Shown here: positions 15,068 to 53,305 of the stretch, in pieces | How the letters are laid out: every line of letters begins with the position of its first letter | Position numbering within the stretch: position 1 is the first letter of the stretch | Assembly (NCBI GenBank): GCA_964575845.1 | Contig: CAZNSX010000007.1 | Span: 80,772-144,771 of the forward strand | DNA: 64,000 nucleotides | From: an uncultured bacterium | Lineage (GTDB): Bacteria; UBA8248; CAZNSX01 | Direction: 5' to 3' | Notes under the pieces: model-generated | What the model was told of the DNA's origin: nothing | The model's database searches: none | What the model saw: the letters and a program-made list of their open reading frames with translations, nothing else | Program-made: the position numbers and the translations under genes

Positions 15068-15197
15068 GAGAATTTTATGCCGCTCCCTTCTGGACGGCCC
15101 GATGGGGATAAACGAGACCAGCAAGGCCGAATGAGATGTGACGGCCTTGAGGTTTTCGGAAGGGGCTCTGGGGTGAGGCGCAGCCTTTTCCTCCCCA

Positions 15198-16097: not shown

Positions 16098-16128
16098 GGA
16101 TGGAATTCAGCGGAGCCCACGGGGCGAG

Positions 16129-16761: not shown

Positions 16762-16775
16762 CGGGTCGAAGTCCC

Positions 16776-24589: not shown

Positions 24590-24685
24590 AGAATGTCCCT
24601 CCTTTCAGTTGAGAGCTTCCTCTCTTCCGGGGCCGCTTCTCGGCCCCTCGGGCATCGCCCAGCTAAGGCCCCTATCGCGGGGCCC

Positions 24686-25909: not shown

Positions 25910-26157
25910 TTTCCCTCCCTCCCGGCTCGCATCCCCCAGAAGACATAGTTGACCACGCCCAGCAGGAGAAGGAAGACCGGGACCGCCACGATGGATATTC
26001 CTATGGAAGCCGAAGGCACATCCCTCAACTCTATCGAGAGCCGAATCAGGCTCACGATCCAGCCGACGATGCCCAGAATCAAGACAAAGAAGAGGACCAG
26101 GACGGCCAGCTGAATCGCCCGCACGGCCCTGGGGCTCGGCTCTTTCCCTGAAGCCAT
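25906..26157 (-). CDS. small two-transmembrane protein in the ActD-like position
   Basis: An 83-aa protein with two hydrophobic helices, tightly packed between the NrfD gene and the cytochrome gene. Confidence 0.5.
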   Translation of the reverse strand: MASGKEPSPRAVRAIQLAVLVLFFVLILGIVGWIVSLIRLSIELRDVPSASIGISIVAVPVFLLLLGVVNYVFWGMRAGREGK

Positions 26158-26172
26158 AGGGGCTCTCCCTTC

Positions 26173-27516
26173 TCAAGCGCTCCCGGGGGCGAGGGGAGGC
26201 TCGGGCATGTATCTCCGGACCCTCTCCTCCACTTCCCTGACGCCCAGTTCCCTTCCCTCCTGAACCTCCCAGATGGAGACAATGGGGAAGAACTTGGTGA
26301 AGAGGAGGAAAAGCAGGACAAAGAGGGCGAAGGACCCGACCAGAATCCCCCATTCCACCAGGCTGGGGATATAAATCCCATGGGGCAGCTCCAGGCTGGG
26401 GGTTGCAAGGGTGGGCACGATGATTATGAAGCGCTCGAGCCACATGCCCAGGATGACGCTCAGGGAGGCTATGAGGGTCCCCTTTATGGTTCGAAACCTC
26501 CTTATGCCCATGAGGGTCATGGGTACGGCGAAGTTGGCCACCACCATAGTCCAGAAATAGGGGGCATGGGGACCCGTGAACTTGGCCCAGAAGACCTTCA
26601 TCTCCTCGGGCTCGCCGCCGTAGTAGCCCGTGAGGTACTCGGCAAAGGTGAAATAAAACCAGAGGAAGGACATGACGAGGAGGAGGATACCCAGGTAGTT
26701 GAAGTGGATGGGCTTGAGATAAGACTCTAAGTGGTAGGCCTTCCTGAAGGCCAGCATGACGATGATCAGTGCCGCGATGCCTGAGTAAATGGCCCCGGCG
26801 ACAAAATAGGGGCCGAAGATCGTGCTGTGCCAGCCGGGCTGAAGGGTCATGGAGAAAACAAAAGAGACCACCGTGTGCACGGATACGGCCACGGGGATTA
26901 CCACCACGGCCATGATGGCTATGGCCACGTTCAGAACCCTCTGCTGGCGGGCGGTACCCTGCCAGCCCAGGGAAAGCACCTGATAGAGCCACCGGTAGCG
27001 GCTGGTCCCGTCGCGCAGGATGGCTATGTCGGGGATCAAGGGTATGTAGAGGTATATGGTGCTGGCCATGAGATAGGCGGAGATGCTGGTCACATCCCAG
27101 AGCAGGGGCGACTGATAGCGCCCGTACCATAGAATGTTGAGCAGTCGGTCGGGACGGCCCAGGTCTACTATGATGTTGGCCGCGCCTATGAAGAGGACCA
27201 TCACCGTTATGACCTCGGCCATTCGGGTTATGGGCCTGCGCCACTCGGCCTTTGCCATGCGGAGGATGGCCGAGATGAGGGTTCCCGCATGGCTTATGCC
27301 GATGAAGAAGACGAAGTTGGTGATGTAGAAGCCCCAGGAGACGGGCTGATTGAGGCCCGTGACCCCCAGGCCCCCGAACCACTGGACCACATAGGAGGCC
27401 AGGCCCCAGGCGACGAGGAGCAGGAGAAATCCCAGAAAAAACCAGAACCTCCAGCCCGTCGAAAGGATCGGCCCGAGGAGGAGATGATCCTGAAAGGCCT
27501 TTTCAGAGGAGTTCAT
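26173..27516 (-). CDS. NrfD/PsrC/ActC-type polytopic quinone-interacting membrane subunit
   Basis: A 447-aa protein with about 10 transmembrane helices and GLGVTGLNQPVSWGFYITNFVFFIGISHAGTLISAILR...WRRPITRMAE. It overlaps the FeS gene by 14 nt. Confidence 0.85.
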   Translation of the reverse strand: MNSSEKAFQDHLLLGPILSTGWRFWFFLGFLLLLVAWGLASYVVQWFGGLGVTGLNQPVSWGFYITNFVFFIGISHAGTLISAILRMAKAEWRRPITRMAEVITVMVLFIGAANIIVDLGRPDRLLNILWYGRYQSPLLWDVTSISAYLMASTIYLYIPLIPDIAILRDGTSRYRWLYQVLSLGWQGTARQQRVLNVAIAIMAVVVIPVAVSVHTVVSFVFSMTLQPGWHSTIFGPYFVAGAIYSGIAALIIVMLAFRKAYHLESYLKPIHFNYLGILLLVMSFLWFYFTFAEYLTGYYGGEPEEMKVFWAKFTGPHAPYFWTMVVANFAVPMTLMGIRRFRTIKGTLIASLSVILGMWLERFIIIVPTLATPSLELPHGIYIPSLVEWGILVGSFALFVLLFLLFTKFFPIVSIWEVQEGRELGVREVEERVRRYMPEPPLAPGSA

Positions 27517-28201
27517 CCTTCTCCCCTTCTATCAGGTAGACCACCTTGGGGCGGGTGCCCAGCTCCTCCAGCAACCGGAAGGCCCGGGAGCTCTTGTGGA
27601 GGCGAGAGACCGCGCTATCAGGGTCCTCCAAGTCGCCGAAGGTTATAGCTCCCGCCGGGCAGGTCTGGGCACACGCCGGGATGAAATCCCCTTCCTCTAG
27701 CTCTCTCCCCTCGGCCCTGACGCGGTCCCTTGCCTTCTGGAGGCGGTGGACGCAGAAGGTGCACTTCTCCACCACTCCTTTGGGCCTCAGGGCTACATCG
27801 GGGTTTCGGTGAGTGCGCAGGTCCTCTCGATTGGTATAGAGATGCCAGTTGAAATACTTGGCCGTGTAAGGACAGGCGGCCATGCAGAACCTGCACCCTA
27901 TGCAGCGGGCGTAGTTCTGGGCCACGATGCCCTCGGGGTCCCGGTAGGTGGCGTGCACCGGGCAGACTTTGGTGCAGGGAGGCTCATCGCAGTGGAGGCA
28001 GGGCCTGGGGATATAGCGGGCGTGAACCCTGGGATAGGGGCCGGCAACCTCTGTCACCATGTCCATCCAGCTAAGGATCCTTCCCCTGGCCGCTTCGCCG
28101 GGTTCCACATAGGGGACATTGTTCTCAGACTTGCAGGCGAGGACGCAGGCCTGGCAGGCGGTGCATCGGTCAAGGTCGATAGCCATTCCCCAGAGGGGCA
28201 T
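27503..28201 (-). CDS. 4Fe-4S ferredoxin-type subunit (PsrB/NrfC/ActB2-like)
   Basis: Several CxxCxxCxxxC(P) clusters: CTACQACVLAC, CLHCDEPPCTKVCP, CIGCRFCMAACP, CTFC...CAQTCP. Confidence 0.85.
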   Translation of the reverse strand: MPLWGMAIDLDRCTACQACVLACKSENNVPYVEPGEAARGRILSWMDMVTEVAGPYPRVHARYIPRPCLHCDEPPCTKVCPVHATYRDPEGIVAQNYARCIGCRFCMAACPYTAKYFNWHLYTNREDLRTHRNPDVALRPKGVVEKCTFCVHRLQKARDRVRAEGRELEEGDFIPACAQTCPAGAITFGDLEDPDSAVSRLHKSSRAFRLLEELGTRPKVVYLIEGEKDELL

Positions 28202-28214
28202 GCCCCGGTCCTCC

Positions 28215-30698
28215 TTATGCTTTCCTCACCTTGACCCGAGTTCCTGTCAGCACCCCGAGACCCCTCAGGGTATCCTCTTCGGGGATGATGATGGAGCTGG
28301 GGTTTGCCCCCGTCTTCCCGGCCCATTCGCTCAGCGCCTTGTGCCCCTGGCCAAAGGGAATATTGACCACTCCGGGCATGGCCCCCGCGTAAAGCCTGGC
28401 CCTCACCTTTATCTTCCCCTTGGAGGATTCCACCCAGACCAGGTCTCCATCCTTTATCCCCAGCCTCCTTGCCGTGGCCGGGTTCAGCTCCACCCAGTTC
28501 CCCCAGCGCATTCGCAAGTGGACGCCCAGACTCTCCTGAAGCTCGGGCAGGAGGGCCGTCCTCCCTCCCATCTGGCTCATGAGCTTATAGGTATTGAGCA
28601 CCAGAAGAGAATCACTCTCCGCGGACTCCCCCTCGGAGGGCTGATAGTGCGGGAGGAAGAGCTTATCACCACGGGCGGCCAACTTCTGCTCCTTAAGGAT
28701 TCGCTCCAGGGCTTCCTGGGGGGAGAGCTTCTCCCTCAGCGCCACCTCTTCCGCCGCCCCATCGAGGAGGCGCTTCAGGCCCAGGGAGTAGAACTCATAC
28801 CGCCCGCTCTCGGTCTTGAGCAGATGCTTCACGCCGCCGTAAGAATCCTCCGGGTCCCACCACGCCCCTCTCTTTCGGAGGGCTTCCCAGAACTCATCAT
28901 AGTCTTCGAACTCCTTCGCTCGGTAGCCCTGGCCAGCCAGGATTCGTCTGAAGGCTTCATCCGCTGGCTCTGAGACCACATATCCCCGCTCCGCCTCAAA
29001 GAGGCCCTGGCCGCGCTCATAGAGGAGGTCCGCATAGCTCTCCCATTCAAAGGCCCCAGAAAGAGGCTCTCCCACGGCACGGGCGAGTTCGAGGAGAAGG
29101 TCTCCTGTGGAGCGGGTGTTGTGGAGGGGCTTAACGGCCGGCCGCCCCAGGCTGAAGGCCGTGAAGCCTGAGAGGTGGGCCATGCTGTCATCCTGCCAGC
29201 GCTCCAGATAGGTGGAGTCGGGAAGGACGAGGTCGGCTTCAAGTGCGCTCTCATCCATGAAGGGGGAGAAGCTCACCACCAGAGGCACCCGCGCAAGAGC
29301 CCGCTTGAGCTCCTCTCCGCGCGGGTGAGAGAAAAGCGGGTTCGTAAAATAGAAGAAGAGCACCTCCAGCCCATAGGGCTCGCCCTTGAGAAGGGCCCGG
29401 GGCAGAGCCTCCACCGCATGGTCTGCCAGGAAATACTTCCCCTTCCCGGCCCCGTCTATCCGGGGCATGGAGAGCCCCCTCCTCGCAACCTCATCCAGCT
29501 CCGGCTCCTCCCAGGGAGCCAGGGGCAACTCCCCCTGGATGAGGATCGTCCCCGGCTTTCCAAGGTTGCCGGTCAGGGCGTTCAGGCTGTGAATGGCGAG
29601 ACGGGTGTATATGTCGTTCGGGTGAAAGGCGGGGCCCCGCTCGCCGAGGGCCAGAGCGCTCTTGTGCTCAGAGAACGCCCGGGCCATGGCGATGATGTCA
29701 CGTATGGGAACCCCTGTTATCTCGGAGACCCTGGGAAGGGTATATTCTTGGAGGACTAGGCTCTTATAGCCCATGTGGCGGCGCCCGGCCTCGTCAGGCC
29801 AGTCCTCAAACCCAAAGGTGTGCTCCCTCACGAATTCCTTATCAAAGCGCCCCTCGCTCACGATCACATGGGCCAGGCCAAGGGCAAGGGCGCAGTCGGT
29901 CCCGGGCCTTATGGGAACCCAACGGTCAGCTTTGGCCCCTGTGACCGAGAGGCGGGTCTCCACCTGGACCAGCTTTCCCCGCCGACCGGGTCGGCCCTGT
30001 CGGAGGTGTCCGTAAGTGGAAAGCTGGTATACGGGAGAGATCCAGGACTCCAGCAGGTTGCAGCCGAAGGAGAGGATGAAATCGCACTCTCTCAGGTCAT
30101 AGCTAAGGGGGAGCCGAATTCCCTGGGTGAGAAAGTGCGTCTTCGTCACCTTCTCCACTTCAAGGCAGCGGTTTCGGATGTAGTTGGGAGAGCCATAAAC
30201 GCGGAAGAACCTCTGAATAAGGCCGTCCACAGAGCCCCGGTATTGCCCCCCCAGGAGGGCCACCTTATGGGGCTCACCCTTCTCCCGCAGCTCCCCCAGG
30301 CGACCGGCCAAAGTCCTTAATGCCTCCTCCCAGCTTATGGGCTGCCAGCGGCCCTCGCCCCGTTTTCCGCTGCGGCGAAGAGGCCCGCGGATACGCTCGG
30401 GATGGTAGAGGAACTGAAGGCCTGCATGGCCCTTGGGGCAGAGGCGGCCGCGGTTTACGGGATGGTTGGGGTTTCCCTCGATCTTTACAGCGCGCCCATC
30501 CACCACCCTCACAAGAATCCCACACCCCCCCGGGCAGACCTGGCAAATGGTGGGCACCAGCTCTTCCTCGTAGTCCGGCCAGGGGTCTCTCTCAATGGAG
30601 GAGACCTCGCTAAGAGCCCCTCCCCCCTTGGCCAGGGCCGCGGCACCGGCGGCCATGCCTCCGAGCAACTTAAGGAATCCCCTTCGGTCGAGAAGCAT
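28215..30698 (-). CDS. TAT-exported molybdopterin (bis-PGD) oxidoreductase large subunit, Psr/Phs/ActB1/QrcB-like
   Basis: A twin-arginine signal (DRRGFLKLLGG) and an intact N-terminal FS0 motif (CQVCPGGCGILV...x...RLCPKG). It is 827 aa. Confidence 0.85.
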   Translation of the reverse strand: MLLDRRGFLKLLGGMAAGAAALAKGGGALSEVSSIERDPWPDYEEELVPTICQVCPGGCGILVRVVDGRAVKIEGNPNHPVNRGRLCPKGHAGLQFLYHPERIRGPLRRSGKRGEGRWQPISWEEALRTLAGRLGELREKGEPHKVALLGGQYRGSVDGLIQRFFRVYGSPNYIRNRCLEVEKVTKTHFLTQGIRLPLSYDLRECDFILSFGCNLLESWISPVYQLSTYGHLRQGRPGRRGKLVQVETRLSVTGAKADRWVPIRPGTDCALALGLAHVIVSEGRFDKEFVREHTFGFEDWPDEAGRRHMGYKSLVLQEYTLPRVSEITGVPIRDIIAMARAFSEHKSALALGERGPAFHPNDIYTRLAIHSLNALTGNLGKPGTILIQGELPLAPWEEPELDEVARRGLSMPRIDGAGKGKYFLADHAVEALPRALLKGEPYGLEVLFFYFTNPLFSHPRGEELKRALARVPLVVSFSPFMDESALEADLVLPDSTYLERWQDDSMAHLSGFTAFSLGRPAVKPLHNTRSTGDLLLELARAVGEPLSGAFEWESYADLLYERGQGLFEAERGYVVSEPADEAFRRILAGQGYRAKEFEDYDEFWEALRKRGAWWDPEDSYGGVKHLLKTESGRYEFYSLGLKRLLDGAAEEVALREKLSPQEALERILKEQKLAARGDKLFLPHYQPSEGESAESDSLLVLNTYKLMSQMGGRTALLPELQESLGVHLRMRWGNWVELNPATARRLGIKDGDLVWVESSKGKIKVRARLYAGAMPGVVNIPFGQGHKALSEWAGKTGANPSSIIIPEEDTLRGLGVLTGTRVKVRKA

Positions 30699-30732
30699 CT
30701 CTTATAATCTCTCAGCTAAAGAAGCCAATTTC

Positions 30733-31251
30733 TCAGTGGTGGCAGGCATTACAGTCAACGCTCACCCTCTTGAGCTTATGACAGTCGATGCAGGCCTCCA
30801 TGCTTACGGGCACAGTAGCTTCTGACGGAGGAGCAGAGAGATGGGCAAAATCTCCGTGGCACTCCCCGCATTCAACCTTTCCGAAGACCACGTGACGCTT
30901 GTGGGAGAAGTTAACGGTGTCGGGAACCTGGTAGAGCCGCCGCCAGGGGATCTCAAGCCGCCGGTCGGCATACTCCCTAAGCCTCTTTTCCTCTTCGGTC
31001 TTGACCTCACCGCCCGAATGGCAGGAGGTGCAGATGCTGAGGGAAGGCCTTCCTGCAACCGGCCGCTTTTCATAATATTTGTGGCAGGTCCGGCAGGTTA
31101 TCTTCTCCTTCCCTTCCTCCACCTTGGCTTCCATGTGCTTCTTGTGGTTGAACCTTAAGGGCTGAGTTATACCTCCGCCCCTGAAGATTAAGCCCGCCGC
31201 CGCGATGAGCACACCCACCAAGGCCAAGAAGACTATGCCCTTCGTGCTCAC
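30733..31251 (-). CDS. membrane-anchored pentahaem cytochrome c (ActA/QrcA-like)
   Basis: An N-terminal transmembrane helix and five CxxCH motifs (CRTCH, CTSCH, CGECH, CIDCH, CNACH) within 172 aa. Confidence 0.8.
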   Translation of the reverse strand: MSTKGIVFLALVGVLIAAAGLIFRGGGITQPLRFNHKKHMEAKVEEGKEKITCRTCHKYYEKRPVAGRPSLSICTSCHSGGEVKTEEEKRLREYADRRLEIPWRRLYQVPDTVNFSHKRHVVFGKVECGECHGDFAHLSAPPSEATVPVSMEACIDCHKLKRVSVDCNACHH

Positions 31252-33099: not shown

Positions 33100-36000
33100 T
33101 CAGACCCACGCGTGAAGGGAGCGCCGATCGCGGATGAGCTTTTCCTTTGAGAGGTCCTTGAGGGAGGCGTCTTGCAGTCTTTCCAGGATCCCCCTTATCT
33201 CATCATCCATCCCGCCGTCACCACATTTTTTTCTAGCCGATTCTTCCGCGCATATTCTGGCTTCCTCGTACTCACCCGTGGCGGCAAGAGCGCAGGCCAA
33301 AGATAGGTAGGCTTCCGACATCCTTGCCGGAGCCTGAATTTGCTCCCCAACCTCTAAGCTTCTTCGGAGCACTTTTACCGCCTCTCCATGTTCCCCCTTC
33401 TCCGTGAGCGCGCGGCCCAGGTTCTCAAGGGTCACGGCCACGCCTTCGGTGTGTTTGATCTCCTCTCTGAATTTCAGGCTCTCCTGGTAGCAATCAACCG
33501 CCTTATCGAGCTGGTTCAGGCAGTGATAAACATTGCCCAGGCTGTTTAGGGATGTGCCTGTCCCCAGGGCATCACCCACCTGACGCCGGATGTCCAGAGC
33601 CTTTTGATAATATTCGACCGCTTCCCCGTAGGACCCGCGCAGGCACGCAACCAAGCCCAGGTTGTAAAGTGACGAGGCCATGCCCGGGAGGTGTTCCAGC
33701 GCCTCCTCGCTCTCAAGACATTTTTCAAAATGCCCCGTTGCTTTCTCATAGTCCCCCTCCCTGACGAAGGAGGCCCCCAGCACGTTGTGGGCGCGCGTGA
33801 TGTCGGAGAGGCTCCCCAGTTCCTCGGCAAGGCGGAGGCTCTCGTAAGCCCAGCGCCTCGCCTCTTGACAATCGTGCTGGCGGAAGTGAATCCAGCCGAG
33901 CAGGCCCAAACACCTACTCATCTCGACGGAACTCTCCCCCCCGGGGAAGGCCTCCAGCACCTCCTTGGCTTCGAGAAGCTTGCGCAGGCCATCCTCGAAC
34001 TTTCCGCGCCTCTCATGGGCCAACCCGACCCTGGCTTTTGCCCGGGCCCACTCCAGGGGCCATTTTCTCCTGGCGGGGTCTTCTTCCTCAAGGAGGGCGA
34101 GCAATACCTCGTTTTCCCGGATGGACCTCTCATATTCGGCGGTGAAGAAATAGACGCTGCTCAAGCCCTCTCTGGCCTGTATAATGAATCCCGTTTTCTT
34201 GGCCTTTCCCTCAGGGCTAAGTTTCCCGAACGCCCCGATGGCCCGCCGGTAACACTCAGCAGCCTCTTCGTTTGCGTAAACCTCCTTGGCCTTATTCCCG
34301 GCCCTCCCCTGGAACTCGAGGGCGCTCTCCCAGGCCTCGCCGTAATAGTAGTGGTGGGCCAGGATGCCCCAGTTCTCCTCCAACCTCTCAGGATAAAGCT
34401 CCCCTATGGCGGAGGCGACGGCCCGGTGCAGTTCCCTTCGCCTCTTGAGCAGGAGGCCCCCGTAAGCAACCTCCTGGATGAAAGCATGCTTGAAACTGTA
34501 AATAGGTTCCGGGAAATGAGACTTCTCGTAAATGAACTCTGCACCCTCCAGTTCTTTCACATGCTGTTCGAGTTTTTCCTTCTCGACGCTCACCCTCTGG
34601 AGAAGGGGGAGGGAGAAGTCTCTGCCAAATACGGAGGCCTCCTGGAGGGTTCGCTTAACTTCACCCTCCAGATGGTCGATCCGGGCCGATATCACCTCCT
34701 GAATGGTGCCGGGCACCTCCATTCTCGTGAGCGCGTCCGCGCCCCGGTACGTGAGATCTTTGGCCACCGCCCCGCTCTCCACTAAAGATTTAGTTATCTC
34801 CTCTATGTAGAAGGGATTGCCCTCGGCTTTGGCCAGGATTAGCCTTCTGACCTCCTCAGATACCCTTTCCGTCTCCAGGATGTTCTCTATTATCTCGTTG
34901 CACTCTCCTTCGGAAAGCCGGTCCACTGCTATCTGGTTGAAATATGACTTGCCCGCGCACTCGCAAGCGTATCCGGGTCTGAAGGTTACGAGGACCATCA
35001 TGGAGCTTCCCGCTATGGAGTCGACCAAAAATTTGAGAAGCTCCTCAGATGTCTTATCAATCCAGTGTAGGTTTTCGAGGACCATCACAAGAGGTCGAAC
35101 CTGGCATTCCTTCAACACGACAGCCCTAATGGCCTCGAAGGTCCTCCGCCTTCTCTCGAGGGGCTCGAGGCTCCTCAAGAGTTCTGCCCCCTCCCCTTCC
35201 AAGCTCACCGAAAATAGGTTCAGAAGGAAAGGCGAAGCCCATCTCAGGTCCCCCCCTATCCCGTCAAGTTTTCTCTCGACCTTATGGCGGATGTTCTCCT
35301 CTCGGTCGCGCTCTTCGACCTGAAATTCTCTTTTTAACAGCTCTATCCAGGGCAGGTAAGCCACGGAGCTCCCGTAGGAGACGCAGCGGCCCTCGAGGTA
35401 TCCGGTGTCCTCACCCGTAAGGCTCTTTCTGAACTCGTAGAGCAGCCTTGATTTCCCGACTCCCGCCTCACCGACAAGGCATACCAACTGTCCGCGACCG
35501 CTCTTCACCTTTTCTTTGCAATCCCGCAGCGTGTCGAGCTCCCGCGCCCGGCCCACGAGTCTCGTGAGCCTTCGCTCCTCAGAGAGGTCGGCCCGGATGC
35601 TCTTGACCCCCGTGACCCTGTAAGCGGAAACCTTTTCCTCCCTTCCCTTCACCTCAAGTTCACCTACCGGCTCAAACTCGAAGTACTCTTTCACCTTTTG
35701 GTAACTATTCTCACTTACCAGGATGGTCCCCGGGGAGGCCAGGCTCTCCATGCGGGCGGCCAAGTTCGTGGTGTCGCCCACAGCGGTGTAGTCCATCCGG
35801 AGGTTATTGCCTATGCTCCCCACAACCACAGGGCCGGTGTTGAGTCCTATCCGGACCCCGAAAGCAATACCCCTCTCACACTTGAGCTCTTCCCCGTAAG
35901 CCCCTAACGCCTCCTGCATCGAGAGGGCCGCGTGGACCGCCCTCCTGGGCCCATCCTCGTGGGAGATGGGCGCACCGAAGAGGGCCATTATGCCGTCCCC

Positions 36001-36456
36001 CGTGAACTGGTTCACCGACCCCTCGTAGCGGTGCACCGAATCCATGAGGATTTCAAAGCACCTGTTCATCATTGAGTGAACCTCTTCGGGGTCGAGCCTC
36101 TCGGAGATGGAGGTAAATCCGCTGACATCAGCGAAGAGCACCGTGACTATCTTCCTCTCCCCTTCGATGGCGCTCTTGGAGGAGAGGATTTTTTCCGCAA
36201 GATGCCTGGGAGTGTAACTCTGGATCTTCTGGTTTAGGTCCTCGGCGGCATATCCGGGCGGCATCCGCTCTTCCGCAGACGGCGAGGGCTCGGTCAACTT
36301 TCGGCCGCAGCCCCCGCAGAAGGAGAAATCCGCGGGGTTTTCAAACCCGCAGGCCGGGCATAGATTCCCCAGCCGCGAGCCGCATCTCCCGCAGAAATTC
36401 ACCCCTGCGGGGTTTTCAAATCCACATTGGCGGCAAATCATTTTGCCGGTCCTCAT
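33100..36456 (-). CDS. multidomain signalling protein: double zinc ribbon, class III adenylate/guanylate cyclase, AAA/STAND ATPase, TPR repeats
   Basis: CRQCG..CGRCG..CPACG..CGGCG; then RKIVTVLFADVSGFTS...FTGDGIMALFGAP (cyclase core); then a P-loop, LVGEAGVGKSRL; then a long TPR-like helical C-terminus. Confidence 0.85.
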   Translation of the reverse strand: MRTGKMICRQCGFENPAGVNFCGRCGSRLGNLCPACGFENPADFSFCGGCGRKLTEPSPSAEERMPPGYAAEDLNQKIQSYTPRHLAEKILSSKSAIEGERKIVTVLFADVSGFTSISERLDPEEVHSMMNRCFEILMDSVHRYEGSVNQFTGDGIMALFGAPISHEDGPRRAVHAALSMQEALGAYGEELKCERGIAFGVRIGLNTGPVVVGSIGNNLRMDYTAVGDTTNLAARMESLASPGTILVSENSYQKVKEYFEFEPVGELEVKGREEKVSAYRVTGVKSIRADLSEERRLTRLVGRARELDTLRDCKEKVKSGRGQLVCLVGEAGVGKSRLLYEFRKSLTGEDTGYLEGRCVSYGSSVAYLPWIELLKREFQVEERDREENIRHKVERKLDGIGGDLRWASPFLLNLFSVSLEGEGAELLRSLEPLERRRRTFEAIRAVVLKECQVRPLVMVLENLHWIDKTSEELLKFLVDSIAGSSMMVLVTFRPGYACECAGKSYFNQIAVDRLSEGECNEIIENILETERVSEEVRRLILAKAEGNPFYIEEITKSLVESGAVAKDLTYRGADALTRMEVPGTIQEVISARIDHLEGEVKRTLQEASVFGRDFSLPLLQRVSVEKEKLEQHVKELEGAEFIYEKSHFPEPIYSFKHAFIQEVAYGGLLLKRRRELHRAVASAIGELYPERLEENWGILAHHYYYGEAWESALEFQGRAGNKAKEVYANEEAAECYRRAIGAFGKLSPEGKAKKTGFIIQAREGLSSVYFFTAEYERSIRENEVLLALLEEEDPARRKWPLEWARAKARVGLAHERRGKFEDGLRKLLEAKEVLEAFPGGESSVEMSRCLGLLGWIHFRQHDCQEARRWAYESLRLAEELGSLSDITRAHNVLGASFVREGDYEKATGHFEKCLESEEALEHLPGMASSLYNLGLVACLRGSYGEAVEYYQKALDIRRQVGDALGTGTSLNSLGNVYHCLNQLDKAVDCYQESLKFREEIKHTEGVAVTLENLGRALTEKGEHGEAVKVLRRSLEVGEQIQAPARMSEAYLSLACALAATGEYEEARICAEESARKKCGDGGMDDEIRGILERLQDASLKDLSKEKLIRDRRSLHAWV

Positions 36457-46391: not shown

Positions 46392-46723
46392 AGGGGGGGG
46401 TTGGGGGAAGGAGGGTCAGGGGGGGCATTCGCGGGCCGCTGACTGCCAAACTTATGGCGGGAACGGCTGTTCGGGCTGCAGTCCCTAGGCCAGGGGCAAA
46501 GGATCACTGACCAGTAATTTTAGCCTCATTATACTCCACAGAGAACAGCTCACTCACTCCACCACAGCTGCCGGGATGGCGGAGGAATTTCAGGACCGTG
46601 CGGGGGCAGGGTTGCTCTGACAGATGTATTTCGGGGAGACATTTTTCTGTATTTCTAAAAAGACCCCTGCACGATAAGGCATGCAGATAATTCGGAGTTT
46701 TTACCTCTTGAGCTTCCAGGTCA

Positions 46724-47359
46724 TCATTTGGGCCACGCCTCTTTGCAGCGGAAATTGTTACACACGCGCCTATTTTCGTGGATATGGAGGCCTAATTTAG
46801 CGACAACTGACGGAAAGAGTGCTTCCAAAATTTCAGACGCAATCGCGATTGCTTTTGTCGCCTCCTCCTTGGAGACCAGGTCGGCTTGGTGAATAATCTT
46901 GTTACGTCGCTGCTGGAGCTCTTGCATCTCCTCCCAAAGAGGTTTCGAAGATCCGGAGCGCTTAAAGCTTTTAAGATCAACGCCGCCATATTCAGACAGA
47001 ATCCGAAATAAGGGATCGTTAAATTTGCTCAAGCTGGTGTACCTGATTACCAGGTCAGCGATGATTCCTGCTATCGATTCGCTGTGAACGAGGCCATACA
47101 CCACTGGCTTGAGCAACGTAACTTTGAGTCCCACTTCGACAGCGATAGCCGCAAATATGTGCGCAGCCGTAAAATGCTCGGGAAGGAGGCGGCGGGCTTC
47201 GGCTAGTGAGCGCAAGGGAGCCTCAGCAACCAGCGGATTAGCCACATAGAATGACTGCAAACGTTCAGCGGTGAATTCTTCGATCGCCAGCACTCTATGC
47301 TCCTGATACAATTCAATTATCCACTCCTCATAACGAGCCTCTTCCTCCGTCATGGACAT
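46724..47359 (-). CDS. uncharacterised protein with an RNxxxH (HEPN-type) motif
   Basis: An all-helical 211-aa protein with the motif LQQRRNKIIHQAD (R-x4-H, with Asn after Arg) near the C-terminal third. GGAGGG lies 6 nt before the ATG at 47359. It is in an AT-richer segment. Confidence 0.6.
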   Translation of the reverse strand: MSMTEEEARYEEWIIELYQEHRVLAIEEFTAERLQSFYVANPLVAEAPLRSLAEARRLLPEHFTAAHIFAAIAVEVGLKVTLLKPVVYGLVHSESIAGIIADLVIRYTSLSKFNDPLFRILSEYGGVDLKSFKRSGSSKPLWEEMQELQQRRNKIIHQADLVSKEEATKAIAIASEILEALFPSVVAKLGLHIHENRRVCNNFRCKEAWPK

Positions 47360-47380
47360 ATACAACCCTCCACGAAATCC

Positions 47381-47445
47381 TAGCCGGGTAGGTCACGGCT
47401 GCGCCGTGACCCTTGCTAACGGTGAGGCGCAGCCTCACCCTACCC
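47381..47445. repeat. composite palindromic intergenic element, copy a (module A + module B)
   Basis: tagccGGGTAGGTCACGGCtgcGCCGTGACCcttgctaacGGTGAGGCgcaGCCTCACCCTACCC. It has two perfect hairpins and terminal inverted GGGTAGG / CCTACCC. The TAG stop of the 90-aa ORF lies inside it. Confidence 0.85.
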
Positions 47446-47712
47446 CGCTTCCTCAATCTTTTCCCACTCCGCGCCCTCTCCATCAGGTCTGATGCAATGT
47501 CTCGCCCCGTTATCAAAAACAACTAGAGCACAAAAATCAGGCGTAATCTCCTGGCCCTCATAAGGCTCATGAGGAATTATTTCGACTACTGTTCCTTTCA
47601 CACCTTTCTCTAACCAAACCCCATTCGGCCAGGGCTCCTCCGATACTTTCAGGTCCCAACGCCATTTCCCGCCGATCCATTCCACTCTATCATCCTTCTT
47701 GAGAAAAGGCAT
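47440..47712 (-). CDS. small hypothetical protein, probably beta-rich and SH3-like
   Basis: A 90-aa protein. AAGGAGG lies 7 nt before the ATG at 47712. KGVKGTVVEIIPHEPYEGQ...ALVVFDNG is reminiscent of small DUF4926-type proteins (recollection only). Confidence 0.55.
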   Translation of the reverse strand: MPFLKKDDRVEWIGGKWRWDLKVSEEPWPNGVWLEKGVKGTVVEIIPHEPYEGQEITPDFCALVVFDNGARHCIRPDGEGAEWEKIEEAG

Positions 47713-47739
47713 CTTCACTCCTCCTTTATCTATGTGTAT

Positions 47740-47811
47740 AAGCCGGCTAGGTCATAGCTGCGGCGCGCTCAGTATTTTCATACAATCCTGGGGTGAAACC
47801 TCAGCCTACCT
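47740..47811. repeat. composite palindromic element, copy b (degenerate)
   Basis: aagccGGCTAGGTCATAGCTGCGGCGCGCTCAG...caatcctGGGGTGAAACCTCAGCCTACCT. Confidence 0.7.
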
Positions 47812-47826
47812 GACTATCATTTCAAA

Positions 47827-47860
47827 ATAATGCTGAGCAGCTTCCTCAGCCATCCCACCC
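47827..47860. repeat. module-B-only copy (b2)
   Basis: ataatGCTGAGcagcttcCTCAGCCATCCCACCC. Confidence 0.7.
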
Positions 47861-47920
47861 GTGCCATCTAAACCTCGAAATTCTCTGGAGCCAGAGTACC
47901 GAGAGCATATGTTTTAAACA

Positions 47921-49243
47921 TCATTGCGTGCGAAATTCCTCAAGGATATCTCTAAAGAATGTCCATTTCGTAATATCGGGGAGGTTTCTTAGCTCCGCAT
48001 ACGAATACCAGTTGTCATTGAGTTCCATCGCCGCAAGAGCCTTTTCAGCCTCTTCAAGATATATCTCAGAATTACCAGGGTCAACGATAGGTAATCGTAA
48101 AAGGAGAAGCTCGAGGCCTGCTATGTTTGGCATAATGTCATACACGACACTTCCAATATGCAGGGCTGAAGCAACCTGTTCTTTTTCTAATGGTTCATAT
48201 CCTTGCAAATGGCTCATATCCATCCATCGCTGGACTATTTCAACCGGCTTCTCTGCAAGTGTTTCTTTGGCGGGCCATGAAACAAATGCTCCCGTTGGAT
48301 ATATCCCCCTTTGATGAAGACTACTCAACACCTCTATATTTCTTATTATATCTCCGTAAGAAATTCCTACCCGCTCAAAAGTAAGCCGCCAAAACTCCTT
48401 CCAGAAATCCAGACCCTCTTTAGCAAGTTCTTGATGTTGTCCTAAGAGCTCGAAACGGTCTTTCCCCGCTTTTCGCGCCGCAAGCCAAAACAGGCGCTTT
48501 CTCTCCTTATCGGGCATTTCCTGAATCTCACTTTCGCTTAGACCGTTAGCCCAGTTATATTGTTCTGTGAGAACGCTTCTCTCCATGTCTTTGTAGATAA
48601 GCGAGCAGATTCTTTCCATGTTAAACCAATAAATCCGCGGTATATCCTTCTTCCTTATTATCCCCAGGTCATCTTCCTCTGCAACTTCTAGTAGCTTTCT
48701 TTCTATTTCTTTCGCTTTACTTGAGGGGTCTCGGATAATGGCTTGGAAAATATAAAACATGATGTTTTGGTTAACGACTTGCATTCTTTTCCAATGCTCT
48801 TCATTGAGGTATCTCGCGTCAGTGGGAAATCCTCGTGATTCAAGTAATTCTTTCTCGTAGGGCTTCCACCGGGCATGAACGATAACATTTCGGAGGTACT
48901 TAATTGCCAAGTAGTCATCGATGATTTCATTACTCGCTTTGACCCCTGCTTGCTCAAATGCATCACGCAAGCTTTTAATCTTTTCGCCATTCTTGGCGCC
49001 CTCTTTAAAGTAAATTGTTAAAATATTCAAGCCATGCTGCTCTTTCCATTTTTCTTTCCATTCCTTAAGCGCACTTTCAATGCTGGCGATCATCATTACA
49101 GCAAATATACGGCAATAGGAGGCATTACAGAGGTCTCTAACTGCCGCCTTCAAGGGGTGCGTTAAAGCGGCTAATCTCCCGCTCTGAAGAAAAATAATAT
49201 CATCGGTATAGATCTCAATAGCCTCAGCTCGTGGCATGACCAT
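47921..49243 (-). CDS. uncharacterised 440-aa protein: an N-terminal RNxxxH (HEPN-type) domain and an unknown helical C-terminal region
   Basis: The motif IKYLRNVIVHARW (R-x4-H) lies about 125 aa from the N-terminus, preceded by a helical segment. The remaining approximately 270 aa match nothing I recognise. GGAGGAG lies 6 nt before the ATG at 49243. It is in an AT-richer segment. Confidence 0.6.
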   Translation of the reverse strand: MVMPRAEAIEIYTDDIIFLQSGRLAALTHPLKAAVRDLCNASYCRIFAVMMIASIESALKEWKEKWKEQHGLNILTIYFKEGAKNGEKIKSLRDAFEQAGVKASNEIIDDYLAIKYLRNVIVHARWKPYEKELLESRGFPTDARYLNEEHWKRMQVVNQNIMFYIFQAIIRDPSSKAKEIERKLLEVAEEDDLGIIRKKDIPRIYWFNMERICSLIYKDMERSVLTEQYNWANGLSESEIQEMPDKERKRLFWLAARKAGKDRFELLGQHQELAKEGLDFWKEFWRLTFERVGISYGDIIRNIEVLSSLHQRGIYPTGAFVSWPAKETLAEKPVEIVQRWMDMSHLQGYEPLEKEQVASALHIGSVVYDIMPNIAGLELLLLRLPIVDPGNSEIYLEEAEKALAAMELNDNWYSYAELRNLPDITKWTFFRDILEEFRTQ

Positions 49244-49266
49244 AATATCTCCTCCAACACTCATCA

Positions 49267-49370
49267 GCGTAGGTCACGGCTGCCCTATAGCTAAATATAG
49301 CCGAGTAGGTCACCGCTACGCCGTGACCTACTTATCCCCCATAATGCTGAGCGGCGACCTCAGCCTACCC
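49267..49370. repeat. composite palindromic element, copy c (extra half module A + module A + module B)
   Basis: gcGTAGGTCACGGCtgccctatagctaaatatagccgAGTAGGTCACcgctacgccGTGACCTACTtatcccccataatGCTGAGcggcgacCTCAGCCTACCC. Confidence 0.85.
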
Positions 49371-49516
49371 AAGCACCTATTTAGCATAAAAGAAAAAGAG
49401 CTACAAGAATATTGAATTGTGCGAGAACCACAGGCGAAATCAGTGACTTCCCTGGATTTTTGTTCACATGTCAAGAATTTATCAAGGGCGGGCTGGGCCT
49501 TGGCGAGGCGCTGCTC

Positions 49517-50296
49517 CTACTTCTCCACCTTCTCCAATTCCCTTTCCCGCTTCCCCGTCAGGTCGGCCGCGGCGAAGCCTGGAAGGTGGGGCAGGGCCAT
49601 GCGGAAGTCGGCGATCTCATCCACCTCGATCGTGCCCGATGCGGTCACGAGGTCGAGGACATGGCCGCCGCGGCTGCGGTCCTCTGAGAGGAAGTGGAAG
49701 TGGTAGCCGGGTATGTTGAGCCCTGCGACGTAGGGAGGCGTGCGGAAGCCGATGAGCGTCCCCTTGACGCCCCTGTAATCGAACACCGCCTGCCCTTCGA
49801 CCACTTTTGCCAGAGGTCGGTAGGGCCGGGTTTGGGCGGGGACACTGCGCACCTTCATCGAGCGGAAGAGGCCGTCGATGCGGAAGGCCTGGAAGTGGTT
49901 GGCGTTGGCGACGGCGCCCTCAAGGAGCGCCCGCAGGTCCTTGTAGGAGAGGCCGCCCGGCAGGGGAAGGGTCTTGTCCGCATCGAAGAAGGTGACCACG
50001 GCGAAGGGCGTGGCCATCCCGGGCGCCACCGGGTAGGCCCGTCCGTCCGTCCTCACCTGGTAGAAGGTTCCCTCCAGCATGACGAGCTCGCCGTCCAGGC
50101 GGTTTAAGGTGCCGAGCCCCACATCCCCGTGCCGGGCGAGCTCGGCGAAGGTCATGTCCCCGTCGTAGAGACCGTGCAGGAGGGCGTTGATGGTGGAGTA
50201 CTGGAAGAGGGTGTCGGGACGCTCCCCGGCCAGGGCCCCGAAGGCAAGGGCGAGGACGAGGAGGGCCCCCAGCAGGCATCTAAGAATCGGCTTCAT
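49517..50296 (-). CDS. budA: alpha-acetolactate decarboxylase with a signal peptide
   Basis: TLFQYSTINALLHGLYDGDMTFAELARHGDVGLGTLNRLDGELVMLEGTFYQVRTDG, plus the C-terminal GYHFHFLSEDR..GGHVLD, matches the AlsD/BudA pattern. Confidence 0.9.
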   Translation of the reverse strand: MKPILRCLLGALLVLALAFGALAGERPDTLFQYSTINALLHGLYDGDMTFAELARHGDVGLGTLNRLDGELVMLEGTFYQVRTDGRAYPVAPGMATPFAVVTFFDADKTLPLPGGLSYKDLRALLEGAVANANHFQAFRIDGLFRSMKVRSVPAQTRPYRPLAKVVEGQAVFDYRGVKGTLIGFRTPPYVAGLNIPGYHFHFLSEDRSRGGHVLDLVTASGTIEVDEIADFRMALPHLPGFAAADLTGKRERELEKVEK

Positions 50297-50329
50297 CCGT
50301 GTTCTCCTGACGTCCGGCGGAAACTTGTA

Positions 50330-50389
50330 AAGCCGGGCATAGCTATGGCGTGACCTACATAGACGGTGAGGCGCAGCCTCACCCCACCC
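50330..50389. repeat. composite palindromic element, copy d
   Basis: aagccGGGCATAGCTATGgcGTGACCTACatagacGGTGAGGCgcaGCCTCACCCCACCC. Confidence 0.8.
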
Positions 50390-50420
50390 AACTGATTTTC
50401 CATGGAATTCTCATGAACAC

Positions 50421-51323
50421 CTACTTTCCCTTCATCTTTTCCCATTTCGCCCACCGGGCTTTGGCGGCCGCGGCGGGGAAGTGGACCAAATGGCACTTGA
50501 AACAGCTGTCCATCCCGAATCTCATCCAGATCGCCCCGACCGTCTTAGGAGTAGCGGAAGGGTCATCCAGAGCCCGCCCGAGCTTGTCTAAAAGAACCCT
50601 CGCGTCCTCATCGACGAAGTACTTCCTCTCGGTCTCATGGCAGAAAGCGCAGACCCCCCTCAGCGCCTGGAACCTTGCTTTGAACCTCTGAAGCTGCTTT
50701 TGAGCGTTCTCCCTCTGGCCCTGCTCGAAGTCCAGCAATATTCCCACAATGCTTTCGTCGAGGTGCAGCATCAGTTGGAGATAGACGACCTCCTCATTCG
50801 TCACCGGGTCTTTCACCCTTATCGTGTCGAAATCACGCCAGTGGTACCTTTGTTGAACCGAGGGCATGGTGGCTACGTGACAGTCAAAACAAAGCCCGCC
50901 CAATTTCTCGTGCGCCGCCAACACTTCTCCCTGGGCGCCGCTCTTGAGCGCTCTCCCGAGCTCCTCCACCGGGCCCATCGGATAGTTCTTCTCCCATTCG
51001 GGCACTATTTTGGATATTTCCACATACTGGGCCTTGAACCTCTCGAAATCGGCCCTGGCATTCTTAGTGTCGCCCTCAAGCAGGTCGGCGACAATTCCCA
51101 CAAAGGAAGAGTTCAACTCCAGCATTTTCACGAGATAGACGGGCTGCTCAGCCTTGGGAGGATAGAGCTTGTCCAGAGAGCTCGGAGGCGGAGCGGAGAA
51201 GGCCGCCGGGTTCCAGCTCTCAAGTTTGAAGCCTTCCGTTTTGCGACCCTGGGCATTTGCGAACGGGAGCGCAACGGCCAGAACGGTCAGGATACATATT
51301 AACTGTAAAGCTATTTTTCGCAT
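50421..51323 (-). CDS. secreted trihaem c-type cytochrome
   Basis: A signal peptide and three CxxCH motifs (CFDCH, CAFCH, CFKCH), each at the end of a helical approximately 90-aa segment (cytochrome c'-like arrangement). Confidence 0.7.
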   Translation of the reverse strand: MRKIALQLICILTVLAVALPFANAQGRKTEGFKLESWNPAAFSAPPPSSLDKLYPPKAEQPVYLVKMLELNSSFVGIVADLLEGDTKNARADFERFKAQYVEISKIVPEWEKNYPMGPVEELGRALKSGAQGEVLAAHEKLGGLCFDCHVATMPSVQQRYHWRDFDTIRVKDPVTNEEVVYLQLMLHLDESIVGILLDFEQGQRENAQKQLQRFKARFQALRGVCAFCHETERKYFVDEDARVLLDKLGRALDDPSATPKTVGAIWMRFGMDSCFKCHLVHFPAAAAKARWAKWEKMKGK

Positions 51324-51399
51324 AGTACCTACTCTCCTTTTGAGTTGGAAAAGCGTTTCAGCTGGTTTCTGCCAAGAGAAAAGCTTCGTCTCCCCTCCC

Positions 51400-51516
51400 C
51401 TATTCCGTCTTGAACCTGAAGGCGCCGTATTTCTTCAGGATGCGCTGATAATCCCCCTGGTAGATGCGGTCATATTCTTTGAGCCAGCCGTGGGATTCTT
51501 CTCTCCAGTGAATGCT
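51400..51516 (-). pseudogene. orphan 3' end fragment of a CN-hydrolase paralogue
   Basis: It translates as SIHWREESHGWLKEYDRIYQGDYQRILKKYGAFRFKTE*. The C-terminus of the 52262-53305 gene reads YWREDLEGWLKEYDRIYQGDYARILKKYGGPFRFKTE*. About 110 bp are alignable, and by eye most aligned positions are identical. It starts directly after the hepT stop. Confidence 0.75.
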
Positions 51517-51852
51517 CTACCCCAGCGACCGCAGGATTTCCTGTGCCTTTCCCTTGAGCTTTGGCAGGTCCTCCCCCACCGTTTTCCAGACCTCTTCCAG
51601 GTCAATCCCGAAATACTCATGCACCAACACGTTTCGCATGGCGATGACGGCACCCCAAGGGACCGCCGGATTTTGCTCCCGCAGCCGCCGTGATAATCCC
51701 GAGGCCGCCTCGCCGATGATTTGGAGATGATGAACCATCCAGACCTGGATGAGCTTATCTTTGCGGAAGGCCTCCTTGCCTTTGGTCGCTTGGCTTTCGA
51801 TGTTTGAGATGGCTTCGAGGATATCCAGGAGGCGCTGCCGGTCGTCTCTCAA
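51517..51852 (-). CDS. hepT: HepT-type HEPN toxin (DUF86)
   Basis: LLDILEAISNIE..., IIGEAA and AMRNVLVHEYFGID (R-x4-H) motifs. A TTG start at 51852 overlaps the mnt stop (TTGA). Confidence 0.8.
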   Translation of the reverse strand: MRDDRQRLLDILEAISNIESQATKGKEAFRKDKLIQVWMVHHLQIIGEAASGLSRRLREQNPAVPWGAVIAMRNVLVHEYFGIDLEEVWKTVGEDLPKLKGKAQEILRSLG

Positions 51853-52139
51853 AGGGGAACCGCTTCTCGCATGACGCGCTCCCGGACGCGTGGCCTGAGG
51901 CCTCGGTCGCTCACCAGGTTGACCTTGCACCCCAGGAGGGCTTCCAGTTCCTGTGCGAGCGCCGCATGCGTGAAGAGGCTCATGTCCGGCCCCGGGTCGA
52001 TGAGCAGGTCGATGTCGCTCTCAGAGTCCGCCTCCCCCCGCGCCACCGAGCCAAAGACGCGCACGTTGCGGGCCCCATAACGGTCTATGACCCGCAGGAC
52101 TTCCTCTCGTTTTTGCTTCAGAAGGGTATGGAGCTTCAT
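51849..52139 (-). CDS. mntA: MNT-type nucleotidyltransferase antitoxin
   Basis: VRVFGSVARGEADSESDIDLLID (minimal NTase G-S-x10-D-x-D motif); 96 aa. Confidence 0.85.
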   Translation of the reverse strand: MKLHTLLKQKREEVLRVIDRYGARNVRVFGSVARGEADSESDIDLLIDPGPDMSLFTHAALAQELEALLGCKVNLVSDRGLRPRVRERVMREAVPL

Positions 52140-52212
52140 TGCAATACTTCGGCCTTTAGTTTGAACCAGAGAGGAGGATTGGCTTTCTTGAGCATTATAG
52201 CACTTTCCGAGA

Positions 52213-52241
52213 CAATGCTCAGCCGCGGCCTGAGCCTACCC
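52213..52241. repeat. module-B-only copy (e)
   Basis: caatGCTCAGccgcggcCTGAGCCTACCC. The stem carries a compensated G/C swap relative to copy c. Confidence 0.75.
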
Positions 52242-52261
52242 GAATTAACCTTCCCCCTCCC

Positions 52262-53305
52262 CTACTCCGTTTTGAACCTGAAAGGGCCCCCGTATTTTTT
52301 CAGGATGCGCGCGTAATCCCCCTGATAAATCCGGTCGTACTCTTTGAGCCAGCCCTCAAGGTCCTCGCGCCAGTATAAGTAATCGTAGGAGTAGGGGCTC
52401 CGCTCGGCAAGGCGCTTGTAGATCTCGGGGTAGCGCTCGAAGATCTGGCCGGGGCGGCAGCCGATGGGCTTCCAGTCGGGGTCATCGGGTTTTGAGAGGT
52501 TCTCCTCGTCGTAGTTCCGGGTGCGGAGGTAGCGGAGGCGGTCCATGTCGAGGTCTATGACGAGTATTCCGGGCTCCTCAAGCGTCCCGAGCATTTCCTC
52601 CGGGCCGGCAACGAGCGCGCCAGCGCTCGTAGTTGAGTAGCCGACGCCTTTTATCGAGTAAAGATGCTGGGTGACGATCACGTAGTAGAGGTTTTCAGCG
52701 GCGCGAGAGCGGGCGACGCAGCGCCAGGTGTCCCTCAGTCTGATGCCGGTCCTGCTGTGGGTCCCGTGGACGGGCGAGACGATTATCTCGGCCCCATCGA
52801 GCATGAGGAGCCTGCCGAGCTCCGGTACGAAGAGCTCGCTGCAGATGGAAAGGCCGATGCGGCCGAGCTCCGTCTTGACTACGCAAGACCCCTCGCCCGG
52901 AAGCAGATGCGCCTTTCCGTCATAGAGGTAGGCGTTGAGGGGAGGGGTGTCCGGCTGCTGGCGGCGGTAGTGGGCTACCTCTTTCCCCTCGGGAGAGATG
53001 AGCCTTAAGGTGAGATATTGCGCGCCCGGAATCTCGCTCTCTATCACATCGCCCGCAATTATATGCATCCCGTGCTCTTTCGCCTTCTCCTTGAGCCTCT
53101 CAAGGGGCTTGAAGGGATACTTCGGGTTATCGAGCGGCCCCGTTGCCGGCCCAGGGTAGCCTTCCGGGTAGAGGAGAAGTTCTACACCCTTAGATGCGGC
53201 CTCGTCCGCATAGTTTATTGCGTTCTCTGCGTTCTGCCACTCGGCCTCACCGAAAAAGGATGCCGGCAGCACAGCACCGACTCTTACCTTTGAGGGAGAA
53301 GACAT
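52262..53305 (-). CDS. carbon-nitrogen hydrolase (nitrilase superfamily) protein
   Basis: LLLYPEGYPGP (Glu), a conserved Lys region, and RIGLSICSELFVPE (Cys nucleophile). AAGGAGGA lies upstream of the ATG. Confidence 0.75.
   Translation of the reverse strand: MSSPSKVRVGAVLPASFFGEAEWQNAENAINYADEAASKGVELLLYPEGYPGPATGPLDNPKYPFKPLERLKEKAKEHGMHIIAGDVIESEIPGAQYLTLRLISPEGKEVAHYRRQQPDTPPLNAYLYDGKAHLLPGEGSCVVKTELGRIGLSICSELFVPELGRLLMLDGAEIIVSPVHGTHSRTGIRLRDTWRCVARSRAAENLYYVIVTQHLYSIKGVGYSTTSAGALVAGPEEMLGTLEEPGILVIDLDMDRLRYLRTRNYDEENLSKPDDPDWKPIGCRPGQIFERYPEIYKRLAERSPYSYDYLYWREDLEGWLKEYDRIYQGDYARILKKYGGPFRFKTE

Follow-up and report, generated by a model that had tools for sequence, protein, structure and literature searches.

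The locus described here raises the question of what the palindromic repeats are that separate one gene from the next in a compact run of same-strand genes: recombination sites of a cassette array resembling an integron, or members of a family of repetitive extragenic palindromic (REP) sequences. The run comprises eight minus-strand genes (46724-53305) and lies on contig CAZNSX010000007.1 of an uncultured bacterium of the lineage UBA8248 (GenBank assembly GCA_964575845.1). The stretch analyzed, positions 80,772 to 144,771 of that contig and 64,000 nucleotides long, is termed the window in the following, and all coordinates are those of the window. The original prediction, made from the sequence alone, had weighed a resemblance to a cluster of attC sites lacking an integron integrase (CALIN) against a REP-like family, with a preference for the latter. 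Our preferred interpretation, which we hold to be probable though far from assured, is that of a lineage-specific family of GTAG-tagged REPs, similar to bacterial interspersed mosaic elements (BIMEs) or to the REP doublets known as REPINs, that is locally clustered in an islet of accessory genes. The part of the prediction that pointed to REPs is thus backed by the anatomy of the repeats, while the part concerning attC sites and CALINs is not.

Anatomy and clustering of the repeat units

All units, 11 in number plus one relic, fall within 47.3-52.3 kb. They share a common plan, in which a GGGTAG(G) head directly abuts a GC-rich stem-loop with a perfect or near-perfect stem of 6-12 bp and a loop of 3-7 nt. 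The head is intact in 7 of the 11 units, the decayed variants being GGCTAG, GGGATG, GGGTGG and ATGTAG. Types A and B1 consist of GTAG, a perfect stem of 8-9 bp and a 3-nt loop, amounting to 23 nt when the arms are 8 bp long. Type A reads GGGTAG-GTCACGGC-TGC-GCCGTGAC, its generalized stem pattern being GTAGGTCACSGC-N3-GCSGTGAC. Type B1 reads GGGTAG-GGTGAGGC-TGC-GCCTCACC on the minus strand and can also be parsed as GGGTAGG-GTGAGGC-TGC-GCCTCACC, and types B2 and B3 follow the scheme GGGTAGG-CTSAGG-N6-CTSAGC-ATT, again with the head on the minus strand. Coordinates and sequences of the elements are as originally described, and the repeat families correspond to the modules A and B distinguished there. 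The individual units are:

47382-47411, plus strand: type A copy 1, AGCC-GGGTAG-GTCACGGC-TGC-GCCGTGAC-C, left half of the composite 47381-47445, with the unit body GGGTAGGTCACGGCTGCGCCGTGACC at 47386-47411
47421-47445, minus strand: type B1 copy 1, the TAG of which is the stop codon of the 90-aa open reading frame (ORF)
47741-47811, both strands: degenerate composite copy 2, with a decayed A at 47745-47770 (plus) and a B-like unit at 47784-47811 (minus)
47829-47857, minus strand: solitary B2 with mutated head, GGGATGG-CTGAGG-AAGCTG-CTCAGC-ATT
49264-49370, both strands: composite copy 3, with a half-A at 49267-49283 (plus), a full A at 49303-49333 whose perfectly palindromic core with arms of 12 bp spans 49305-49331, and a B2 at 49343-49370 (minus)
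50330-50389, both strands: composite copy 4, with a decayed A at 50335-50360 that keeps an intact head on the minus strand, and a B1 at 50365-50389 (minus) with the head GGGTGGG
51511-51523, minus strand: hairpin-less relic GGGGTAG/AGCATT, the TAG of which is the stop codon of hepT
52214-52241, minus strand: solitary B3, GGGTAGG-CTCAGG-CCGCGG-CTGAGC-ATT, 20 nt past the stop codon of the CN-hydrolase gene

The units are thus arranged as four head-out inverted A+B pairs with unlike stems and spacers of 6-15 nt, the composite at 47381-47445 being the best preserved, and as two solitary B units. All of them are extragenic and sit in the gaps between genes; that the TAG of the head serves as stop codon for the 90-aa ORF and for hepT, as noticed earlier, is read directly in the sequence. 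Type A always ends 21-34 nt ahead of the next start codon and the B heads all face the upstream gene (n = 4-7).

The clustering is unlikely to be a matter of chance. The earlier count of five element-bearing gaps out of six was reproduced, and among gaps with a minimum length of 30 nt (39 in total), none of the 33 outside the array contains a unit (Fisher p = 1e-5); the sixth gap of the array carries the relic. For the B1 19-mer GGTGAGGCGCAGCCTCACC, five matches were found vs. 0.07 expected. A 15-nt inverted match at 46573, just outside the array, was dismissed as being at chance level for the region.

With regard to the stems, the B units carry GGTGAG/CTCACC, GCTGAG/CTCAGC and GCTCAG/CTGAGC, i.e., paired flips at two positions, so that the covariation proposed originally is borne out in both partners of two base pairs, albeit in a small sample. 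Type A and type B1 are distinguished by two further paired stem flips. Since all units share the head and the GC-rich stem-loop plan, A and B form a single superfamily whose members differ by such flips. Upon folding, composite copy 1 yields a three-way junction in which two hairpins are closed by a short stem (dG -21.8 kcal/mol, z = -4.05). Copy 3 also folds better than its shuffled versions (z = -3.38), and the degenerate copy 2 folds no better than these (z = -0.97).

This anatomy agrees with what has been reported for GTAG-tagged REPs. These occur as singletons and as dimers that mostly have their GTAG ends outside, many of the dimers are heterodimers with different stems and spacers of 1-100 bp, and the TAG of the head is often the stop codon of a flanking ORF (Di Nocera et al., 2013, PMC3733652). 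Group-3 REPs of Stenotrophomonas maltophilia (REPtron Sm; SMAG elements) are 23 nt long and combine GTAG with a perfect palindrome of 8 bp and a loop of 3 nt; TnpAREP requires the GTAG head in order to recognize them (Corneloup et al., 2021, PMC8266576). They are found singly and in inverted pairs as here, but their stem sequences are unrelated, and the locus studied here has about a dozen units in a single 5-kb stretch. The requirement for GTAG in recognition by TnpAREP would explain why the unpaired head is the best-conserved part of the units. Taken together, the GTAG head, the 23-nt build, the occurrence of head-out heterodimers next to singletons and the use of TAG as a stop codon support an assignment to REPs.

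Similarities extend to other REP-type systems. The Y/Z pairs of Escherichia coli BIMEs likewise join two REP subtypes in inverted orientation, the stems being different and the head GTAGG(C), and sit between genes of one operon; on the other hand, their stems are imperfect and bulged and they are dispersed in hundreds of copies. They are also established sites of rearrangement and of insertion sequence (IS) integration. In the REPINs of Pseudomonas (Bertels and Rainey), two inverted REPs form the presumed mobile unit and single REPs are decayed remnants, but the arms are near-identical and build one long hairpin, whereas the arms differ in the present elements and only 5-7 bp at the ends pair. 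Local clustering is not without precedent either: most GTAG families are dispersed, but GTAG-23 of Thermomicrobium roseum is clustered at few loci (PMC3733652). The same is true of the dRS3/NIME arrays of Neisseria, although both cases mostly represent repeat arrays with short spacers and not one repeat per gene.

In the scenario that we prefer, which is drawn in analogy to REPs studied elsewhere, the units would be recognized as folded single strands by an enzyme of the RAYT (REP-associated tyrosine transposase)/TnpAREP type, an HUH enzyme encoded elsewhere in the genome, which would copy or move them into intergenic DNA. They would have built up within a 6-kb islet of accessory genes that were acquired horizontally and include three genes of the HEPN type, a toxin-antitoxin pair, an orphan, an acetolactate decarboxylase and a cytochrome. 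Intact units have a GC content of 0.64-0.76 even where they flank genes of 0.43-0.50 (host: 0.59), which suggests host-type elements that colonized acquired DNA. On the mRNA, the units would form hairpins between the cistrons, and on the DNA they would constitute fragile or recombinogenic points, one of which is marked by the relic at a rearrangement junction. The cassette-like look of the run would then be due to the position of REPs between genes of the same strand and to their ability to provide TAG stop codons, and is in itself no proof that REPs are integron recombination sites.

It is conceivable, though in our estimation improbable, that the hairpins are instead selected RNA-level signals, e.g., mRNA stabilizers, processing sites or attenuators, that arose by local duplication within one operon, are not mobile and do not serve recombination. 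The units are all located between cistrons on the transcribed strand, pairing in the stems has been kept through compensatory changes, and the run has a single upstream divergent promoter region and a single canonical terminator at its end. However, a T-rich tail follows one unit only (47850-47832, within the solitary B2), and the other units do not combine a GC-rich hairpin with a T-run as intrinsic terminators do. Furthermore, the conserved part is the unpaired GTAG head, in REPs a feature for recognition by a DNA enzyme (PMC8266576), and decayed copies are weakly constrained. The genes differ in origin, and it is therefore unlikely that the intergenic DNA is one duplicated segment. Apart from this, the hairpins may stabilize or punctuate the transcript as REPs do elsewhere, a role that is compatible with REPs and no real rival to them.

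A derivation of the composites from an IS as miniature inverted-repeat transposable elements (MITEs) is the least probable of the explanations considered here. Copy 1 does have terminal inverted repeats of 7-11 bp, but no direct repeat indicative of a target-site duplication flanks any copy, units also occur singly, length and spacer vary, and no transposase is encoded in the window.

Several observations weigh against a REP family. The functional definers of REPs are a high copy number and a cognate RAYT, while the assignment proposed here is built on anatomy. The units are confined to 5 kb of the 64-kb window and, as stated above, are missing from every other gap, unlike a dispersed high-copy family. 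A Pfam scan of the approximately 56 ORFs of the window revealed no RAYT (PF01797), nor did it detect an integrase (PF00589) or a transposase. In addition, the spacing of type A and the orientation of type B are more regular and more cassette-like than expected for random insertion, with the small sample size given above. Finally, exact scans of 185,579 reference genomes and one of the JGI metagenomes, which together covered B1, the A palindrome and B2/B3, did not yield any genome or contig with the family but either no matches or single ones at chance level, those to B1 being devoid of the CCTACCC tail.

In the course of these scans, perfect intergenic palindromes with type A arms, GTAGGTCACNGC-N3-GCNGTGACCTAC, were noted in two unrelated metagenome contigs of lower GC content (0.37 and 0.50), with one copy each (L049:4401-4427 and L050:1300-1326). 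The best hepT homologue (73%) resides in a locus without such repeats, and the nearest relatives of the CN-hydrolase, labeled as Nitrospinota, do not exceed 76% identity and show no synteny. Apart from the window, the locus is on record only in a Logan contig of 100% identity.

Two findings bear on copies outside the array. Firstly, the 15-nt exact match to B1 that had been reported at 15172-15186, just past the prsW stop codon and 32 kb away from the array, does exist (E = 0.003) and is the one notable match in the window beyond the array, but is partial as it has neither the second stem arm nor the CCTACCC tail; it may represent a decayed solitary unit. Secondly, and as an indirect hint, two Logan contigs from SRR14802573, in which the same organism was assembled independently, match the window with 100% identity and overlap (end of L037, start of L076) only in the 29 nt that make up hairpin A plus CTACCCGGC (47383-47411). 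The de Bruijn graph therefore branches on both sides of unit A, so that this unit probably occurs with other flanks in the sample.

Comparison with integron attC sites

Integron attC sites and the present elements have a number of traits in common: one structured repeat per gene boundary, genes on the same strand, a stop codon within the repeat, a cargo of toxin-antitoxin genes and single-strand folding with paired 7-nt ends. The attC sites of Vibrio integrons (VCRs) were first described as REP-like repeats. That the array is a true integron cassette array without integrase, with attC sites that are merely atypical, is nevertheless very unlikely in our view. Apart from the compact same-strand arrangement, with gaps of 80-273 nt, and the toxin-antitoxin genes, it is suggested by one gene family that is known from attC cassettes. 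This is the family of the 440-aa orphan, for which only 13 homologues were found in the protein database. The three closest ones with genomic context (L055, L056 and L058; 47-60% identity) reside in low-GC same-strand arrays, and each gap there contains a textbook attC site with an ...AAC box, an L stem of 10-11 bp and a GTTRRRY box. In other organisms, the 440-aa family is therefore a genuine integron cassette gene, a point that the original prediction had missed. The attC-bearing regions are:

L055:58-5240: attC array around a 440-aa homologue
L056:2049-4396: attC array around a 440-aa homologue
L058:1385-1438: attC-bearing stretch in the array of a 440-aa homologue

These sites served as positive controls for attC tests of the window. 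A scan for AAC..GTT boxes combined with an L stem recovered 5 of the 6 attC sites in L055 with L stems of 10-11 bp, whereas in the window it returned only background matches of 8-9 bp and none in the intergenic gaps of the array. A covariance model of our own was built from seven control sites of a single lineage. It found two held-out true sites with E = 5e-4 and 2e-9 and the control sites overall with E = 5e-4 to 8e-19. The best match in the 44-56 kb region reached 8.2 bits (E = 3.9), a negative result that is limited by the single-lineage origin of the model. A search of the elements against Rfam gave no family.

The sequences themselves are in line with these outcomes. As already stated in the original prediction, canonical attC cores are absent: none of the array gaps contains AAC...GTT R boxes, the ends being GGGTAGG/CCTACCC instead. 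Nor does the best copy form a single imperfect hairpin with an L box and extrahelical bases, since its fold is branched into a three-way junction and not linear. The stretch after the stop codon of the 440-aa gene (47861-47925) was considered as a possible relic attC and rejected, because it has no significant fold (z = -1.59) and was missed by both the heuristic and the model. In agreement with the prediction, intI is not present either, as no ORF of the window matches PF00589. The failed models together with sequence and fold leave the attC/CALIN reading very weak.

A related idea dispenses with attC sites altogether. Here, the composites would be recombination sites of an integron-like cassette capture that uses other sites and another enzyme, either a RAYT-like HUH protein or some further recombinase; GGGTAGG/CCTACCC would act as the R box, and a gene with its downstream composite would be the mobile unit. 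We regard this as unlikely, albeit less so than a true integron array. There is one site per gene boundary in a single orientation, with type A placed at the distance from each start codon noted above. The genes are of mixed origin, with mosaic GC and accessory, toxin-antitoxin and HEPN content, the 440-aa family is a genuine integron cassette gene in L055, L056 and L058, the paired 7-bp ends close a folded structure, the relic is situated exactly at a rearrangement junction, and the units are restricted to the array. On the other hand, no recombinase of any kind was detected among the ORFs of the window, a defined site would not be expected to occur as solitary B units or as a half-A, the final gene is without a site, neither a second array nor a variant strain was found in the collections scanned, and the build of the units is that of ordinary REPs. 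A more specific version, according to which pairs of GTAG hairpins are the junction sites of a gene-capture array where a RAYT-like or other enzyme inserts and excises single accessory genes, is at least as doubtful; this would amount to an integron-like cassette system based on the chemistry of REPs, and the 440-aa gene would then have moved between attC and REP platforms.

The rearrangement junction at the relic

The relic between hepT and the cytochrome gene deserves separate consideration. It had been interpreted as module B with the hairpin removed, and the sequence AATGCT/CTACCCC (plus strand) at 51511-51523 is indeed present. The adjoining feature had been overlooked:

51392-51510, minus strand: second, non-functional copy of the CN-hydrolase tail, 79% identical to 52254-52374

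The duplicated tail of 118 bp corresponds to the final 36 codons of the CN-hydrolase gene and a further 8 nt and follows directly after the hepT stop codon. The junction reads GGGGTAG/AGCATT/C-ACTGG, which places the relic exactly at the join with the duplicated tail. A comparison by eye showed 11 synonymous vs. 5 non-synonymous codon changes between the two tails, with one codon deleted in frame. Both tails therefore diverged under purifying selection and derive from two once-functional genes rather than from a target duplication in decay.

According to the simplest reading, a segment with tail X, B3, mnt-hepT and a B-type unit became joined into a resident CN-hydrolase gene at its 3' end, through a homologous crossover together with an illegitimate one or, alternatively, through a deletion that removed most of a second paralogue. 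In both cases, the illegitimate joint is located within a REP unit. Since REPs are well-known points of rearrangement, the position of the relic fits the assignment of the units to REPs. At the same time, the location of the joint in such a unit is the best single fact in favor of a recombination role. Excision of the B hairpin at C/T sites, in the way RAYT enzymes cut (PMC8266576), was also considered as a source of the relic and rejected, as it would not yield GGGTAG/AGCATT.

All in all, the locus is probably a curious yet ordinary case. If so, it adds a REP/BIME family from an uncultured lineage and offers a clear case in which a REP relic marks a rearrangement junction. It would also illustrate how REPs colonize the flanks of recently acquired low-GC genes and how they can mimic a cassette array, which calls for caution in integron and CALIN screens. 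If the units were involved in gene capture after all, two single-strand hairpin systems, REP/RAYT and integrons, would be linked, and REPs would gain a gene-capture role, a question that has been open since their discovery.

Genes of the run and other features of the window

The setting of the run is core chromosomal, with trp and aro genes, uvrA and pyrD identified in the Pfam scan. The GC content of the genes within the run is as visibly mosaic as had been predicted, ranging from 0.43 to 0.66 compared with 0.59 for the window. The genes and the terminator of the run are, in the order of their coordinates:

46657-46687, minus strand: canonical terminator (hairpin plus T-run) after the 211-aa gene
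46724-47359, minus strand: 211-aa HEPN-like gene with an RNKIIH motif, GC 0.50
47440-47712, minus strand: 90-aa orphan gene, GC 0.50
47921-49243, minus strand: 440-aa orphan gene with an invariant RN-x3-H motif, GC 0.43
49517-50296, minus strand: acetolactate decarboxylase (ALDC) with signal peptide, E = 4.6e-81, GC 0.66
50421-51323, minus strand: 300-aa trihaem c-type cytochrome with three CXXCH motifs
51517-52139, minus strand: mnt-hepT type VII toxin-antitoxin pair (mnt 51849-52139, hepT 51517-51852), assigned by family matches
52262-53305, minus strand: CN-hydrolase, first gene of the run, assigned by a family match

The terminator (46687-46657) is the only clear one of the eight-gene run and closes it. 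Family searches firmly established the identities given earlier for ALDC, HepT, MNT and CN_hydrolase. The three CXXCH motifs of the 300-aa protein confirm a trihaem cytochrome, the relatives of which in reference genomes are merely 28-36% identical. No match was obtained in family searches with the protein of the 90-aa orphan. The earlier label "HEPN-like" is supported by RNxxxH motifs, which are present in all three HEPN-type genes of the run, while matches to known families are weak. The 211-aa protein has only sub-threshold matches to HEPN families (HEPN_RiboL-PSP with E = 7.7e-4, below the cut-off, and Csx1 with E = 0.004). For the 440-aa protein, no family matched; its RN-x3-H motif is invariant across 14 homologues, and when its structural model was used in a fold search of the PDB, the matches of notable probability (0.72-0.84) were HEPN toxins only, none of them being significant.

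Some further features of the window were noted in passing. A long G run with few C at 340-390, inside an ORF at 176-496, may be an assembly artefact or a homopolymer tract, and a 47-kb Logan contig appears to end near this position. On the minus strand, a single ORF of 502 aa (566-2074) joins the domains of a miaA-like isopentenyl diphosphate transferase and a shikimate kinase. Double zinc-ribbon (DZR) domains occur in three proteins encoded on the minus strand at 15198-16980 and 33100-36456, i.e., a PrsW protease, an RDD protein and a 1118-aa adenylate cyclase-AAA-TPR protein. A minus-strand cluster at 23600-31251 encodes a molybdopterin oxidoreductase, a 4Fe-4S subunit, an EB_dh-like haem subunit, an 898-aa cytochrome c protein and a c7-type cytochrome, and looks like a respiratory complex.

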